Assembly (NCBI GenBank): GCA_965213685.1
Contig: CBDBZY010000012.1
Span: forward strand, 64,001 to 128,000
Length of the DNA: 64,000 nt
Source of the DNA: a bacterium
GTDB lineage: Bacteria > UBA8248
Direction of reading: 5' to 3'
The notes under the pieces were generated by a model, which had not been told where the DNA came from, ran no database searches, and saw only the letters and a program-made list of their open reading frames with translations. The position numbers and the translations under genes were made by a program. Below are positions 57,085 through 62,884 of this stretch, in pieces; positions within the stretch are counted from its first letter, which is position 1; each line of letters opens with the position of its first letter.

Positions 57085-57345
57085 TTTTTTTCTCCCTCTC
57101 GGTTTCACCTGCCGGATTTCCGAGTTTCGAGATGCCACGTCCTGCCCGCGTGGCGACAACAAACCCGCATATTCATCTGACTCAAAGAGAAGCCAGCCTA
57201 CCAGAAAACGGCGCGTTTCACAAATAGGCACGTTTTACAAACACAAACAGCGCGGGCGGGAGCGACGGCGGATCGCGCGCGACCAAGTCCGCGTCCGATC
57301 CCGTCCGGGAATCCCTGCGCGCCGCTTCCCCCGGCTTCCCCCGCC

Positions 57346-58623
57346 TCACGCCCGCGCCTTCGCATCGGCGAGGCGCCAGACGGCGGAGGCGAGGACTTCC
57401 GCGCCCCGCACCATGTCCTCAAAGTGGGTGAACTCCTCCGGCGTGTGCGAGAGCCCCCCCACCGAGGGGATGAACACCATGCCCATCGGACATATCGCCG
57501 CCATGCGGCAGGCGTCGTGCACCCCGCCGCTGGACAGGGCGAGGGCCGCGTGTCCCGTCTCCTCCGAGGCGCGGCGGAGCGCTTCTTGAATCCGGGCGGA
57601 GGCGGGGCATACGTCCAGCGTCCGGACGTCGGCGAGGCGTCCGCGCACGCCCCGCTCCTCCTCGATGTCGGCGAGCGCTTCTCTCATGCGCCCGAGGGCG
57701 CGCGTCATCGCCGCCCCGCTCCTGCTCCTGAGGTCGAAGGAGAGCCTGGCGCCTCCGGGCACGATGGACACCCACCCGGGGATGGCGGCCATCTCGCCGA
57801 AGGTGATCGTCAGCCGCTGGGAGTCGGGCGCGCGCCTCGCCATGCGCTCCATCCGCACCATGAAGTCGGCCGCCGCCATGCCGGCGTCTTTGCGGTAGGG
57901 CATGGGCTGTCCGCCGGAGTGTGCCGCGACGCCCTCGAAGCGCACCTCGCCCCGCGTGTATCCCACCACCCTGTCCACGATGCCGATGGGCGTCTTGCGG
58001 GATTCGAGAACCGGGCCCTGCTCGATGTGCAGCTCCACGAACGCCTTGAGCGCACCCTCCGGAATGCGGCAGGAGCGCACGCGCGCTGGGTTTCCGCCCG
58101 CTTGCTCGATGGCCTCGTAGAGGGATTTCCCCGTGGGCGGATGAAGCGTTTTCCGCAAATCCCGCACGCCCAAGACGCCCGTGGCGGCGCTGCTGCCGAA
58201 GACCGTCATCCCGCAGGCGGATTCCTCCCCCACGAAGGCCGCCACCTCGACGGGGTGGTCGTGGGCGAGTCCCGCCTCGCCGATGCGCCGAACCGCCTCG
58301 AGGGCGGTGAGAACGCCCGCCGCGCCGTCGAATCGTCCGCCCGGACTCTGGGAGTCGAGGTGCGAGCCGACCATCACGGCGGGCAGCCCCCGCGAGCGGC
58401 CCTCCTTTCGGCCATAGAGGTTGCCCACGGCGTCGACGCGCGTTTTCAGTCCCGCCGCCTTCATCCACCCCTCGACGAGGTCGCGCACCTCGTTGTAGGC
58501 CGGCGTGAACGCCACGCGGTCGAGCCCCGTCCTTCCGTATTGGCCGATTCGCGCCTGGGCGCGGAACTCGCGCCGCATGCGGGCGCGCCTCACGCGCAGG
58601 GGCAACGCGCTCCGGGAGGGCAT
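57346..58623 (-). CDS. Zn-dependent N-carbamoyl-amino-acid / allantoate amidohydrolase family (M20)
   Basis: DAVGN, GSHLDS..GGRFDGAAGV, GEES, ELHIEQGPVLE, AAHSG, SGGVHDA, GLSHTPEE. Confidence 0.88.
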   Translation of the reverse strand: MPSRSALPLRVRRARMRREFRAQARIGQYGRTGLDRVAFTPAYNEVRDLVEGWMKAAGLKTRVDAVGNLYGRKEGRSRGLPAVMVGSHLDSQSPGGRFDGAAGVLTALEAVRRIGEAGLAHDHPVEVAAFVGEESACGMTVFGSSAATGVLGVRDLRKTLHPPTGKSLYEAIEQAGGNPARVRSCRIPEGALKAFVELHIEQGPVLESRKTPIGIVDRVVGYTRGEVRFEGVAAHSGGQPMPYRKDAGMAAADFMVRMERMARRAPDSQRLTITFGEMAAIPGWVSIVPGGARLSFDLRSRSGAAMTRALGRMREALADIEEERGVRGRLADVRTLDVCPASARIQEALRRASEETGHAALALSSGGVHDACRMAAICPMGMVFIPSVGGLSHTPEEFTHFEDMVRGAEVLASAVWRLADAKARA

Positions 58624-58625
58624 GG

Positions 58626-59378
58626 CTAGAAGAGGTCCTTCGGCACGGGCACTTCCGCGTAGTCCTCGGGCCGCAGGGGATTGTCCGGCGAAATCTCCAG
58701 CATGCCGAAATAGTGATAGGTTTGCCGCAAGTGCTGGAAGGCGTGCCCCAGGGCGAGGAGCATCAGCTCGTGCACGGTGATGGGGCCCATGTAGCTCGAC
58801 ACCTTGCGGGAGAGCGCGCCGCGGCCTTCGGCGAGAAAACCCGTGAGCCTGGCCTGTATCTCGTCGCCATAGGCGCAAATGTCCTCCGGGGTGCGGTAGT
58901 CGTTGGCCGTCGTTTCATACTGCCGCACCATCTGCTCGGTGTACTCTCCCGACTCGTGGGCCCGCATCACCAGCGCCGGGCGTTCGAAACTGTGCCAGGT
59001 GAGCTGGCGCAGCGTGCGGGGCCTGCCGGGGGAGACCCAGTCGAGCGTCTCCTGCGGAATCTGGCGAACCGCGCGGCGCAGGGCGTCAAACGCCATCTCG
59101 AAGTAGCGCCGCATCTGCTCTGCGGACAGCGGCCCAGCACCCCCCTCCGCAATGTCGAACGCGCGGCGCAGCGCGTCCACGTCATAGCCCACGACGACGT
59201 CCCCGCCCCGCACGGAGACGGGCAGGGATTTGAGGCCCAGCGCCTGGAGCTCCGCCCGGGCGCCGGCGTCGTTCGTGCAGTCCCTGTTGATGACCTCCAG
59301 GCCGTTCGACGAGAGAAACTCTCTCGTGAGGGCGCAGGTGTATCAGCCGTGCCGCGTATAGACTTTGACAGCTTCCAT
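58626..59378 (-). CDS. Glutaredoxin-like (UxxC) domain fused to DinB domain; probable selenoprotein, Sec at TGA 59345-59343
   Basis: MEAVKVYTRHG-TGA-YTCALTREFLSSNG..LGLKSLPVSVRGGDVVVGYD runs in frame into a DinB-like region (LTWH ... HAFQH). GGAG RBS before ATG 59378. Confidence 0.82.
59309..59327 (-). promoter_or_regulatory. Putative bacterial SECIS hairpin
   Basis: Perfect 8-bp stem ACGAGAGA-GUU-UCUCUCGU; the loop starts 23 nt after UGA. Confidence 0.7.
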
Positions 59379-59545
59379 GGCTTCTCTCCCCGGTGAAGGA
59401 CGGTGGTTGGGCGCATCATATCAAAGCGCCGGGTGCGGGGGAAACGGCGGGAGGCTATGGCAAACGGGGTGCGCGTGTTTTACTATCGCAGGCTGTCCGG
59501 CAATGGCGGCGCGCTCCGGCCCATTTCGCATAGCGAGGATTCTGG

Positions 59546-61072
59546 ATGCCCCGGTGGTTCGTGAAAGGCGACGTCGACGGCTTCTTCGGCCTGTGGATGG
59601 ACAACCTCATCAACCTTCTTCTGATCGTGAGCCTCCTCAAAGGGGTGCTGGGCTTTCCCGATTCGCTTATTTTCGGGCGCGTGCTGCCCGCCGCCGCCCT
59701 GAGCATCCTGGGCGGCAACCTCTTCTACGCCTGGCAGGCGCGGCGCCTGGCCGCGCGCGAGGGTCGCGACGACGTGACGGCCGTGCCATACGGCATCAAC
59801 ACGGTGACGCTTTTCGCCTTCATCTTCTTCGTCATGCTGCCCGTCAAGCTCCAGACCGGAAGCGCCGAGGCGGCCTGGCGGGCGGGTCTGGCGGCCTGCT
59901 TCGTGAGCGGGGCGATCGAGACCATCGGCTCGCTGGTGGGAGAGCGGATCCGCCGGCTCGCCCCCAGAGCCGCCCTGCTCTCGGCGCTGGGCGGCATCGC
60001 GCTCACCTTCCTCGCCATGGATTTCGCCTTCCGCATATGGGAGAGGCCGCTCCTCTCTATGGTGCCGCTGGCCATCATCCTGCTCCAGTATTTTGGCGGA
60101 TTCCGGCTGCCCCTCGGCCTGCCGGGCGGTCTCGTGGCGGTGGCGACGGGGGTGCTTCTCTCTCTCCTCATCGAGGGGGTTCCGGGCGACGTTCCCGCCC
60201 CCCTGGGCCTCGCACTCCCATCCCTGGCCACCGGCCCCTTGCTGGGCGCTCTTTTCGGCCCGCTCTCCCGGGATTTTCTCGCGATCTCCGTCCCCATGGG
60301 CCTCATGACGCTCGTGGGCAGCCTGATGGTCCTCGAGAGCGCGGCCGCGGCCGGGGACAGGTTCGAGGCGGGCAGCTCCCTGGCGGTGAACGGCGCGGGC
60401 TCCCTCCTCGCGGCCTGTCTGGGCAGCTGCTTTCCCACCACCCTGTATATCGGGCATCCGGGCTGGAAGGCCATGGGCGCGCGCGCCGGCTACAGCGCCC
60501 TCAACGGGGCGGTGGTGACGCTCCTTTGCTGCACCGGCTCGATTGCGTCGCTCTCGAAGATCATTCCGGGCGAGGCGCTGTTCGCCCTCATGCTGTGGAT
60601 AGGGCTGATGATGGTCACCCAGACGTTCCAGGCGGTTCCGGCGCGCCACGGCACGGCCGTGGCCATCGGGTTCATGCCCGCCATCGCCGCGTGGGGTCTT
60701 TTGATGGTGCAATCCTCCCTGCGGGCCGCGGGGACGAGCTTGTGGAAGGTGGGGGAGGAGGCCTTCGCCAGGGGGGGCTTTCACCTGAAGGGGATGATCG
60801 TCCTGGAGCGCGGCTTTATCTTCACGTCCATCCTCATCACGTCCATGGTGGCGAAGCTGGTGGACGGGGAGCCGAAGCAGGCGGCGGGCTGGGCGCTGGC
60901 CGCAGCGGCGCTGAGCTGGTTCGGGGTCATTCACGCCTGGCGCATCACGCCGGCGGGCGTCGTCAACTCCCTCGGCTGGGGGACGGCGCCCGGCATGGCG
61001 GCCGGTTATCTGCTCGTCGCGGGACTGTTCTTCGCGTTCTCGCTCACCTCGTTCGAGAAAAGGGCGCCTTAG
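59546..61072 (+). CDS. NCS2-family (nucleobase:cation symporter) permease
   Basis: WFVKGDVDGFFGL..DNL, TAVPYGIN, FPTTLYIGHPGWKAMGARAGYS; many TM segments. Confidence 0.8.
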   Translation: MPRWFVKGDVDGFFGLWMDNLINLLLIVSLLKGVLGFPDSLIFGRVLPAAALSILGGNLFYAWQARRLAAREGRDDVTAVPYGINTVTLFAFIFFVMLPVKLQTGSAEAAWRAGLAACFVSGAIETIGSLVGERIRRLAPRAALLSALGGIALTFLAMDFAFRIWERPLLSMVPLAIILLQYFGGFRLPLGLPGGLVAVATGVLLSLLIEGVPGDVPAPLGLALPSLATGPLLGALFGPLSRDFLAISVPMGLMTLVGSLMVLESAAAAGDRFEAGSSLAVNGAGSLLAACLGSCFPTTLYIGHPGWKAMGARAGYSALNGAVVTLLCCTGSIASLSKIIPGEALFALMLWIGLMMVTQTFQAVPARHGTAVAIGFMPAIAAWGLLMVQSSLRAAGTSLWKVGEEAFARGGFHLKGMIVLERGFIFTSILITSMVAKLVDGEPKQAAGWALAAAALSWFGVIHAWRITPAGVVNSLGWGTAPGMAAGYLLVAGLFFAFSLTSFEKRAP

Positions 61073-61354: not shown

Positions 61355-62884
61355 ATGGACATGCGGAATGACTCCACGTTTGATCTGGTGGCCATCGGCG
61401 GCGGCGTCGGGGGCCTGGTGGCCTCGGTGGGCGCCGCGCAGCTGGGCGCCAGGGTCGCGCTCGTCGAGAAGACGAAGCTGGGCGGGGATTGCCTCAACTA
61501 CGGGTGCGTGCCCTCGAAGGGGCTGATCCGCGCGGCGCGGCTGGCCGCGCAGGCGCGCTCGATGTCCGCCTTCGGGATTGACGCCGGGGAGGTGCGGGTC
61601 GATTTCCCGCGCGTCATGCGGCGGATGAAGGCCGCCCAGGCCCACATCGGCGCGCACGACGCGCCCGAGCGGTTCGAGGGCATGGGCATCGAGGTGATCT
61701 TCGGGGACGGGGCCTTCACCGGCCCGGACACGTTTCAGGCGGGGGGCAGGACCCTTCGCTCCCGGCGGTTTCTGCTGGCCACGGGAAGCTCGCCCTTCGT
61801 GCCGCCCATCGCCGGTCTCGAGGACGTGCCCTACCTCACGAACGAGACCGTTTTTGATCTGGAGCGGCTGCCCGGGCGCCTGGCGGTGCTGGGGGCGGGG
61901 CCCATCGGCCTGGAGTTGTCCCAGGCGTTTCAGCAGCTGGGCGCCGAGGTGGACGTGCTGCAAAGCGCGCCGAAGCTCCTGCCGAGGCTCGACGCCGAGA
62001 TGGCGGCGATTCTGGCCGAATCCCTGGGCGCGTCCGGCCTCAGGCTCCACTTCAACGTGAAGACGCAAAGGGTCGGGAGGCGCGGCGAGGAGATTCTCAT
62101 CGAGGCCGATACGCCGTCGGGCAGGAGGGAATGGGCGTGCGACCAGCTGCTCATCGCGACCGGCCGCTCGCCCAACGTGGGCGGCATGGACCTGGAGAAG
62201 GCGGGCGTGCGCTACACCCCGCGCGGCGTGGAGACGGACGCCTATCTCCAGACCGCGAATCCGCGCGTCTTCGCCGCCGGCGACGTCCGGGGGCAGTATC
62301 TGTTCACGCACATGGCGGAGTATGAAGCGGGCGTGGCGCTGCGCAACATGCTCTTTCGCGCCCCGTTCGGGGTGCCGCTGCCGTTTCTCCGGAAGAAGAC
62401 GAACTATGACGCCGTGCCCTGGACGATCTACACGACGCCCGAGGCGGCCCACGTCGGCCTCGGCGAGGCGGAGGCCAGGGCGGCTTTGGGGGAGAACCGC
62501 GCGCAGGTGTTCCGCTTTCCGATGAACCGGGTGGATCGCGCCGTCCTCGACGGCGAGACGGAGGGCTGCTGCAAGGTGGTGTGCGACGAGAGGGGCAGGC
62601 TCGTGGGGGCCGACCTGGTCGGGCCCGCAGCGGGGGAGATACTGCACGAGTTCGCGCTGGCCGTCCGCAAGAAGATGCACGTCAGGGAGGTGGTGGACAC
62701 GGTGCACGTGTACCCCACCCTGGCGCAGGTGAACAAGAGGGCGGCGGGCCGCTTCTACGCCGAGAAGCTCTTCACGCCCGCCTTCCGGAAGAAGATGCAG
62801 CGCCTGTTCGGTCTCCGGGGAAGCGTGGAGGTGGTGGACCCGGCCGACCTGGGCGGGCACGGCGCGGGGGAGCGGGGCCGCTAG
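61355..62884 (+). CDS. Pyridine nucleotide-disulfide oxidoreductase class I (mercuric reductase-like/Lpd family)
   Basis: IGGGVGG, GGDCLNYGCVPSK, GAGPIGLE, AAGDV, HVYPT. No C-terminal Cys-Cys. Confidence 0.85.
   Translation: MDMRNDSTFDLVAIGGGVGGLVASVGAAQLGARVALVEKTKLGGDCLNYGCVPSKGLIRAARLAAQARSMSAFGIDAGEVRVDFPRVMRRMKAAQAHIGAHDAPERFEGMGIEVIFGDGAFTGPDTFQAGGRTLRSRRFLLATGSSPFVPPIAGLEDVPYLTNETVFDLERLPGRLAVLGAGPIGLELSQAFQQLGAEVDVLQSAPKLLPRLDAEMAAILAESLGASGLRLHFNVKTQRVGRRGEEILIEADTPSGRREWACDQLLIATGRSPNVGGMDLEKAGVRYTPRGVETDAYLQTANPRVFAAGDVRGQYLFTHMAEYEAGVALRNMLFRAPFGVPLPFLRKKTNYDAVPWTIYTTPEAAHVGLGEAEARAALGENRAQVFRFPMNRVDRAVLDGETEGCCKVVCDERGRLVGADLVGPAAGEILHEFALAVRKKMHVREVVDTVHVYPTLAQVNKRAAGRFYAEKLFTPAFRKKMQRLFGLRGSVEVVDPADLGGHGAGERGR

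Follow-up and report, generated by a model that had tools for sequence, protein, structure and literature searches.

The window analysed here, a 64,000-nucleotide (nt) stretch of bacterial DNA (GTDB phylum UBA8248; positions 64,001 to 128,000 of contig CBDBZY010000012.1, assembly GCA_965213685.1), carries on its minus strand, at positions 58626-59378, a gene that probably encodes a genuine selenoprotein in which a glutaredoxin (Grx)/NrdH-like domain is fused to a DinB domain. The probability given to this reading, that is, to the selenoprotein call together with the two-domain architecture, is about 85%. Codon 12, a UGA, is predicted to be decoded as selenocysteine (Sec, U) with the help of a hairpin lying inside the coding sequence. 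Gene callers halt at this UGA, leaving only a 'DinB family protein' of 190-224 amino acids (aa) to be annotated.

When the window sequence was read directly, positions 58626-59378 formed a single 250-codon gene once the TGA was translated as U. The N-terminus then becomes MEAVKVYTRHG-U-YTC-ALTREFL, with the active site G-U-YT-C, and the same read-through frame goes on to include SLPV, VVGYD, LTWH and GHAFQH. Calling with translation table 11 yielded just one open reading frame (ORF) here, 58626..59213 on the minus strand, which has a GTG start and specifies 195 aa. A purine run resembling a Shine-Dalgarno sequence lies upstream of the ATG of the longer gene (Table 1), and GGGAGA or GGAGG was seen at an equal distance from the ATG in the orthologues compared, as read by eye and unscored. 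The initial annotation of the window had noted the ORF start at 59213, the ribosome-binding site (RBS), the alternative ATG at 59378 and the protein motifs, and all of them were recovered.

Orthologues were sought in 51 genomes of phylum UBA8248. The gene was present in 40 of these, as 42 matches, three of which were cut N-terminally; the other 39 reached codon 12 and each contained exactly one TGA, internal to a reading frame of 249-255 codons. Orthologues with as little as 48% protein identity had their TGA at this very codon. On its upstream side, codons 1-11 showed 45 third-, four first- and no second-position differences when compared with 22 congeners, and 65 third-, nine first- and one second-position differences when compared with 11 orthologues from other genera. 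An excess of third-position differences was also found in codons 13-55, which lie between the TGA and the annotated GTG. A strain variant recovered from sequencing run X4 carried eight substitutions in the gene, all eight of which fell, by arithmetic, on third positions of the read-through frame; one was located upstream of the annotated GTG and none affected the TGA. The TGA was unchanged in contigs from four sequencing runs, which come from one study, possibly the assembly's own source, and are non-independent.

Cysteine-containing homologues point to the same conclusion. In a profile-free search of 1.84 billion representatives, 40 of the 43 relatives that measured 240-320 aa carried CxxC, mostly as WQPGC(S/T)SC, at the columns of U-x-x-C. 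Full-length CxxC homologues, which the initial annotation had proposed to look for, were thereby found, and they retain the N-terminal Grx domain. In an alignment of 50 sequences, C12, C15 and the cis-Pro P53 were invariant. A metagenome scan with the Cys-form alignment returned at least 599 stretches for one motif, and 544 of those listed encode relatives; 80 loci were kept, 77 of which include the N-terminus. The codon for the first Cys was TGA in 16 of the 77 and TGC or TGT in the remaining 61, the TGA loci reading FW(Q/R/H)PG-U-(T/S)SC. When a quick tree was drawn, the clade of the window (15 Sec rows) stood on a long branch and the other clade held 16 Sec and 61 Cys rows. Sec forms thus appear, from these sequences, in at least two deep clades, well outside the lineage of the window. 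At least four changes between the Sec and Cys labels were needed on this tree, of which the well-supported branches force one only. The proposal of a hidden selenoprotein is borne out by the retention of the TGA in all 39 orthologues, the coding conservation on both its sides and the aligned Cys homologues.

The two-domain architecture was recovered by several methods. Pfam model PF00462 (Glutaredoxin) matched residues 4-59 with 31.6 bits (cut-off 22.9), and PF12867 (DinB_2) matched residues 93-219 with 34.8 bits (cut-off 24.8). The initial annotation had described a Grx/NrdH-type start with Sec at the nucleophilic first position and a DinB-like C-terminal domain with a His triad; the first is upheld by the PF00462 match and the retained cis-Pro, and the second by the PF12867 match and the conservation of H129, H212 and H216. 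In the 50-sequence alignment, H216 and R218 were invariant, and H129, H212, R119, E207, Q215 and Q219 were present in at least 90% of the sequences. The placing of one His on the first long helix and of an HxxxH on the last is the spacing of the DinB His triad, and it marks the domain as carrying a putative metal-binding site. For a description of the triad itself, see PMC10950700.

An AlphaFold2 model built on the 50 sequences reached a mean pLDDT of 94.1 and a pTM of 0.86. In the N-terminal domain it places a strand at residues 4-8 and a helix at residues 13-24, and in the DinB domain long helices at residues 86-105, 123-143, 164-183 and 202-226. The closest solved sequences for the N-terminal part, in a search of PDB sequences, were Grx and NrdH redoxins. 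Foldseek matched this domain to BC3987, cGrx1 and NrdH, with TM scores (normalised to the target) of 0.63-0.89 to NrdH/Grx chains, and the C-terminal domain to DR0053 (6iz2), YfiT (1rxq), MDMPI (2nsf) and MST (8f5v), the match to 6iz2 having an E-value of 6.4e-5 and a TM score (target) of 0.83; no solved chain among the Foldseek matches spanned both domains. The MDMPI_N profile stayed under its cut-off (13.4 versus 24.2 bits), as did the NCBIfam redoxin models, of which GlrX_YruB was the best (41.9 versus 88.55), followed by NrdH (33.5 versus 85.75) and mycoredoxin (16.9 versus 89.5). The nearest selenoprotein models in NCBIfam, those named Uxx-star, reached 35 bits against a cut-off of 66, and no NCBIfam model attained its cut-off with the Cys forms either. 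No NCBIfam model, selenoprotein models included, therefore covers the Sec fusion; the initial annotation had left this comparison to be made.

The hairpin that the initial annotation had called perfect was verified. ACGAGAGA and UCUCUCGU pair into a perfect stem of 8 base pairs (bp) closed by a GUU loop, located 23 nt from the UGA within the coding sequence; the 24-nt core has a predicted energy of -10.3 kcal/mol. The criteria listed for bacterial selenocysteine insertion sequences (bSECIS) in PMC13188914, in the portion covered here, are an apical loop 3-9 nt long, a stem with 4-16 bp, a G within the loop's first two positions, 16-37 nt between UGA and loop, and a minimum free energy of -7.5 kcal/mol or lower; the values found (GUU, 8 bp, 23 nt, -10.3 kcal/mol) lie within all of these limits. 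In four AT-rich orthologues the 24-nt core reached just -4.0 to -5.2 kcal/mol. Over 37 distinct sequences, 95.6% of the cells were paired, versus a maximum of 73.3% when the partner strand was slid as a control. Double changes that preserve pairing were present at two pairs, G-C being replaced by A-U in four sequences and C-G by U-A in one, and one further pair showed eight G-U wobbles. Other copies bearing both a TGA and a hairpin, for which the initial annotation had suggested searching, were found among the orthologues and in the metagenome clade.

A short stem formed by the codons for (K/R)-E-F-L is present in the Cys forms too (positions 59309-59327 of the minus strand in the window; loci L088-L167), and it stands at the right distance for a SECIS. 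The Sec forms extend it by means of flanking ACG or GCG and TCG codons. The self-complementary codons could thus predispose the family to gaining or keeping a UGA. In the metagenome clade, the energy at the place of the hairpin was -8.35 kcal/mol for the 16 TGA forms and -6.59 kcal/mol for the 61 TGC/TGT forms (Mann-Whitney P = 0.03, a value that is indicative only, the sequences being related). The TGA forms were more stable despite their lower G+C content (0.48 versus 0.57), and an uninterrupted stem of at least 8 bp was present at this place in seven of the 16.

The initial annotation had made its reading depend on the presence of Sec machinery in the genome. In the genome from which the window comes, a tRNA-Sec was detected (78.6 bits, anticodon TCA), and selA (564.2 bits) and selB (369.8 bits) are adjacent and both intact. 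A selD gene is present as well, although frameshifted in the assembly (contig C31, ~101000-102100, minus strand; locus L039); it is of the Sec type, with a Sec codon of its own (AGG-TGA-GSKLGP).

As to what the protein might do, we tentatively propose, by analogy, that the two domains form one active site in which Sec12 would supply the DinB metal site with a nucleophile of the protein's own and Cys15 would resolve the adduct. The metal of DinB-type transferases keeps a bacillithiol or mycothiol thiolate beside the pocket for the second substrate (PMC10950700). In the present protein the selenolate of Sec12 would replace that diffusible, metal-activated thiolate and attack a small-molecule substrate bound at the metal; the adduct between selenium and substrate would then be resolved by Cys15, leaving a selenenyl-sulfide. 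Overall, the substrate would be reduced or isomerised and not conjugated, with thioredoxin reductase or the FAD disulfide reductase encoded nearby regenerating the enzyme. The substrate would probably be a compound that the transporter and the carbamoylase-type amidase encoded alongside take up and degrade, and selenium would contribute both a better nucleophile and a better leaving group. The CxxC, the cis-Pro and the His triad are conserved jointly over the family, as judged from the 50-sequence alignment.

Several findings weigh against the selenoprotein reading or against this mechanism. The 71-nt fold of the window's sequence was ordinary when compared with shuffles (z = -1.16, 25 of 200 being as good), so the case for the hairpin rests on the relatives. 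Covariation in these is modest: both sides had changed in five cells, and the number of covarying pairs was matched by 47 of 500 shuffles. The conserved (K/R)-E-F-L codons are self-complementary (AAGGAGUUCCUU type); since they dictate part of the stem, conservation of the hairpin is not purely an RNA signal. As regards the mechanism, the invariant resolving Cys suits a plain disulfide reductase equally well as covalent catalysis, and no dominant conserved neighbour was found at the 80 loci of Cys forms. Finally, selD in this genome is spread over three reading frames, with about 10 single-base indels when compared with a congener.

The alternative that fares best leaves the selenoprotein call in place and gives the two domains separate active sites: the UxxC domain would be a tethered disulfide reductase of the NrdH/thioredoxin type that holds the DinB domain or its product in reduced form, or an electron donor to it, and the DinB domain may use a free low-molecular-weight thiol. 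This is possible, if on the unlikely side, and about as probable as the shared active site. Both Cys/Sec of CxxC and the cis-Pro are invariant, a pattern that marks dithiol-disulfide exchange; among solved proteins, the N-terminal domain is closest to the NrdH, Grx and BC3987 redoxins; and reducing partners are at hand, a canonical thioredoxin reductase being encoded in 18 of 21 family genomes and an FAD disulfide oxidoreductase 2 kb away from the gene. Against this, CxxC and the His triad are stably fused and have been conserved jointly throughout a very large family, which argues for direct cooperation, as does the confident single-body structure model (pTM 0.86). None of gshA, gshB and bshC exceeded its cut-off in this genome, a weak point drawn from one incomplete genome and three models: gshA (TIGR01434) and bshC went unmatched, and the score of gshB was 63 bits, its cut-off being 299. 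These missing thiol genes weigh little, because trxB was not detected in this genome either, yet it is present in the 18 family genomes mentioned.

A second alternative, which we regard as very unlikely, is that the family consists of true selenoproteins and that read-through does not take place in this genome, selD being a pseudogene; if its indels were real, the strain could not make selenophosphate. The selD model matched in three frames, with some 10 indels relative to the intact gene of the congener, and no second selD rose above the cut-off in this genome, which is 94% complete. However, the indels lie mostly in runs of G or C, and the gene adjoining selD is split as well (200 + 241 aa versus at least 473 aa in the congener); for these reasons a local assembly error is favoured, and probably accounts for them. 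Moreover, selA, selB and the tRNA-Sec are intact and the Sec codon of selD is kept, the selenoprotein gene has no indel, keeps its hairpin and shows just third-position differences from a co-occurring strain, and selD is intact, with one TGA, in 12 of 12 sampled congeners. The absence of trxB, present as it is in 18 of 21 family genomes, also indicates that this assembly has gaps. The assembly measures 7.97 Mb in 71 contigs, and 22 genomes of the same genus measure 2.9-4.6 Mb; although it is rated 94% complete and 3.7% contaminated, the bin may be a composite or vary in quality.

That the TGA is an ordinary stop, and the product a DinB-only protein of 195 aa beginning at GTG 59213 behind an unrelated leader or a decayed Grx remnant, is extremely improbable: table-11 ORF calling and the public records of relatives (37 of 38 are short) agree with it, and the single-sequence hairpin fold is not significant, but such a product would begin inside the thioredoxin fold, past the active site, codons 1-11 and 13-55 both evolve as coding in the read-through frame, the TGA is fixed in 39 of 39 orthologues down to 48% identity, unlike in a decaying remnant, the Cys of the CxxC homologues aligns with it, ATG 59378 has a conserved purine-rich RBS, and GTG 59213 shows no conservation as a start codon, truncated calls having many different first residues.

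Two further explanations of the TGA were discarded. The neighbouring M20 amidase gene and three of the selenoprotein orthologues terminate with TGA, so TGA is a normal stop in these genomes; this, and the alignment of the site with Cys and not with Trp, excludes an alternative code in which TGA specifies Trp or Gly. A sequencing error at the TGA is excluded by the agreement of 39 genomes and of the contigs from the four non-independent runs. The sole public full-length call (P0017, 250 aa) shows W at the UGA position, most simply as the product of a translation in which TGA was read as W.

The selenoprotein reading was also considered in the context of the whole family. Among cluster representatives, 471 relatives were found at E ≤ 1e-3. 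Of the 38 public relatives obtained by a word-index search, 37 measured 147-233 aa and were named 'DinB family protein' or left unnamed, and the other was the 250-aa call mentioned above. A census of gene calls in the 150 best representatives at 50% identity showed 40 to be full length with CxxC, 75 to begin inside the Grx domain and 35 to be fragments or other forms. The 75 short calls begin just past the active site, many of them at M-(T)-K-E-F-L. Since no sensible thioredoxin fold could do without both its first strand and its active site, most of the 75 calls are probably hidden UGA forms, as we infer from their sequences and as was verified solely where DNA existed. The pattern suggests that unrecognised Sec forms occur beyond the lineages for which DNA was at hand. 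One such call, P0041, is a 'DinB family protein' of Chloroflexota; of it and 74 other representatives, other phyla included, many start at M-(T)-K-E-F-L. The fusion described by the initial annotation is thus real, but its scope had been undersold: it belongs to a large family in which Sec members are numerous beyond the lineage of the window.

Second, divergent copies of the gene were observed in two genomes of one genus, at 49% identity in G047 (contig C20:672-1436) and at 46% in G049 (contig C349). The complete one of the two copies has a TGA and a hairpin too.

A wider reading can be drawn from all this, and it is a doubtful one: that the family is large and overlooked, possibly with more Sec than Cys members; that Sec would be the catalytic nucleophile of a DinB metalloenzyme, the first DinB enzyme to do without a free low-molecular-weight thiol and the first selenoprotein of its superfamily; and that a proto-SECIS provided by the (K/R)-E-F-L codons would explain the scattered UGA forms.

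Among known systems, a Sec-containing Grx (PF00462, UxxC) has been experimentally verified (Table 1 of PMC13188914). The protein studied here shares with it the thioredoxin fold, Sec at the first position of UxxC, the cis-Pro and a bacterial SECIS directly past the UGA, but Sec-Grx is a single domain of ~80-90 aa whereas this protein has 250 aa and a DinB domain. The motif differs as well, being G-U-YT-C and not of the CPYC type. For residues 1-78, the nearest solved proteins in both sequence and fold are NrdH-redoxin, BC3987 and cGrx1 (1h75, 4hs1, 3zij, 7c10); those, however, are stand-alone Cys proteins, NrdH serving ribonucleotide reductase. With BstA/YfiT (1rxq), MST (8f5v), MDMPI (2nsf) and DR0053 (6iz2) the protein has in common the four-helix bundle and a His triad on the first and last helices. 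It differs from them in sequence (14-17% identity) and in having a covalently attached UxxC domain where those proteins use a diffusible thiol. The families Uxx-star and HUGP/GUXX-star (NF041212, NF045501) likewise combine a Grx-like fold with Sec, but to judge by the family names their Sec lies three residues from the C-terminus, as opposed to residue 12 of 250 here, and they have no DinB domain. Glutathione S-transferases (GSTs) and Grx2 of Escherichia coli consist of an N-terminal thioredoxin fold followed by an all-helical domain that forms the site for the second substrate. The order of domains in the present protein is analogous to theirs, the helical domain here being a metal-binding DinB bundle where GSTs have their own C-terminal fold; over the whole length, Foldseek matched GSTs poorly (TM ~0.3, rmsd 13-17 Å).

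UxxC selenoproteins of the thioredoxin fold are already known; their fusion to DinB appears in none of the catalogues, in the portions covered here. In a 2026 table of 119 prokaryotic selenoprotein families (PMC13188914), the terms 'DinB' and 'PF12867' do not occur, and neither a Grx/NrdH-DinB fusion nor a DinB selenoprotein was described in the titles and abstracts listed by a literature search. Within these sources and NCBIfam, the novelty expected by the initial annotation holds, no model or catalogued selenoprotein family covering the Sec fusion. A 'DinB/YfiT-like' selenoprotein family was looked for, and not found, in the 2008 paper on the Global Ocean Sampling (GOS) data: the main text of that paper contains neither 'dinb' nor 'yfit', and its section 9, on fusions, is silent on such a family. 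'DinB/YfiT-like' is an old name of the superfamily (PMC10950700). According to BSepDB, metagenome-assembled genomes (MAGs) of GTDB phylum UBA8248 (Nitrospinota at NCBI) are among the ten most selenoprotein-rich bacteria, and a locus (L034) that carries the gene studied here comes from one such MAG, in which 54 selenoprotein genes are counted (PMC13326102). BSepDB, as described there, searched for previously reported families only, so members of the present family may be filed in it as plain Grx.

The selenoproteome of this lineage is therefore probably still under-counted. As the family is big and its members are annotated as truncated 'DinB family proteins', a curated full-length model would correct many gene calls at once. 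The family would also offer a natural experiment on selenium placed next to a metal-activated thiol site and a handle on the function of an uncharacterised DinB subfamily, and it would couple selenium to a metalloenzyme fold that, in the sources covered, had not been tied to Sec before.

Table 1. Positions, in the window, of the selenoprotein gene, its predicted elements and the genes around it.
Feature	Position	Strand	Remarks
Whole selenoprotein gene (predicted)	58626..59378	-	ATG 59378; Sec-TGA at codon 12; TAG stop 58626-58628; 250 residues
Predicted Sec codon UGA	59343..59345	-	Residue 12, first position of UxxC; only in-frame TGA
Shine-Dalgarno-like purine run	59385..59392	-	GGGGAGAG; 6 nt upstream of ATG
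SECIS-like hairpin	59307..59329	-	Stem 59320-59327 with 59309-59316; loop 59317-59319; two outer pairs around a bulge
Grx/NrdH-like thioredoxin-fold domain, residues 1-78	59145..59378	-	PF00462; U12, C15, cis-Pro P53
DinB_2 four-helix-bundle domain, residues 86-250	58629..59123	-	PF12867
His triad H129 / H212 / H216	58992-58994 / 58743-58745 / 58731-58733	-	Conserved
M20 amidase, hydantoinase/carbamoylase family, 425 aa	57346..58623	-	Starts 2 nt past the TAG stop of the selenoprotein gene; ends in TGA
Multi-pass membrane protein, 508 aa	59546-61069	+	Divergent from the selenoprotein gene
Class I FAD pyridine-nucleotide-disulfide oxidoreductase	61355-62881	+	Redox motif GGDCLNYGCVPSK; ~2 kb away

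The surroundings of the Cys forms were examined at the 80 metagenome loci, one median-length member being annotated for each of the 10 largest clusters of neighbours. The commonest cluster was present in 15 of the 80 loci, and its annotated member (one of 16) is a TctC-type receptor; an MmgE/PrpD cluster was present in eight. Other clusters correspond to PCMT, an NMT1-type binding protein, a short-chain dehydrogenase/reductase (SDR), a LysR regulator, a class II aldolase and an ABC ATPase, and two of the 10 had no Pfam match. Because the neighbours of the Cys forms are not conserved, the context yields a vague theme of uptake and catabolism of small organic compounds, and nothing sharper.

In the window, the gene downstream of the selenoprotein gene encodes an M20 amidase, which matched TIGR01879 with 344.8 bits (cut-off 204) as well as Peptidase_M20. 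Near-misses for this protein included allantoate amidohydrolase and the N-carbamyl-L-glutamate amidohydrolase ErtE (369.6 versus 520 bits), the latter being part of ergothioneine breakdown. It is conceivable, from these sequence matches, that the DinB/selenol enzyme is linked to the catabolism of a sulfur-containing ureido compound. A scan of positions 57200-59700 for promoters and terminators found nothing, and thus no terminator-like site between the two genes, which probably belong to the same operon. Several genera of the family, among them an AT-rich one at 52-55% identity, likewise have the M20 amidase gene next after that of the selenoprotein. In the window, a Liv-type ABC transporter comes after the amidase, and no nrd genes were seen among the neighbours annotated.

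On the other side, the divergent membrane protein had no Pfam or NCBIfam match at E ≤ 1e-5; it keeps its position in most genera of the family. The best models for the FAD oxidoreductase remained below their cut-offs ('FAD-containing oxidoreductase', 493.9 versus 620 bits; MerA, 366 versus 454 bits). Congeners also have this enzyme conserved beside the membrane protein, and it is a possible reductase of the UxxC domain.

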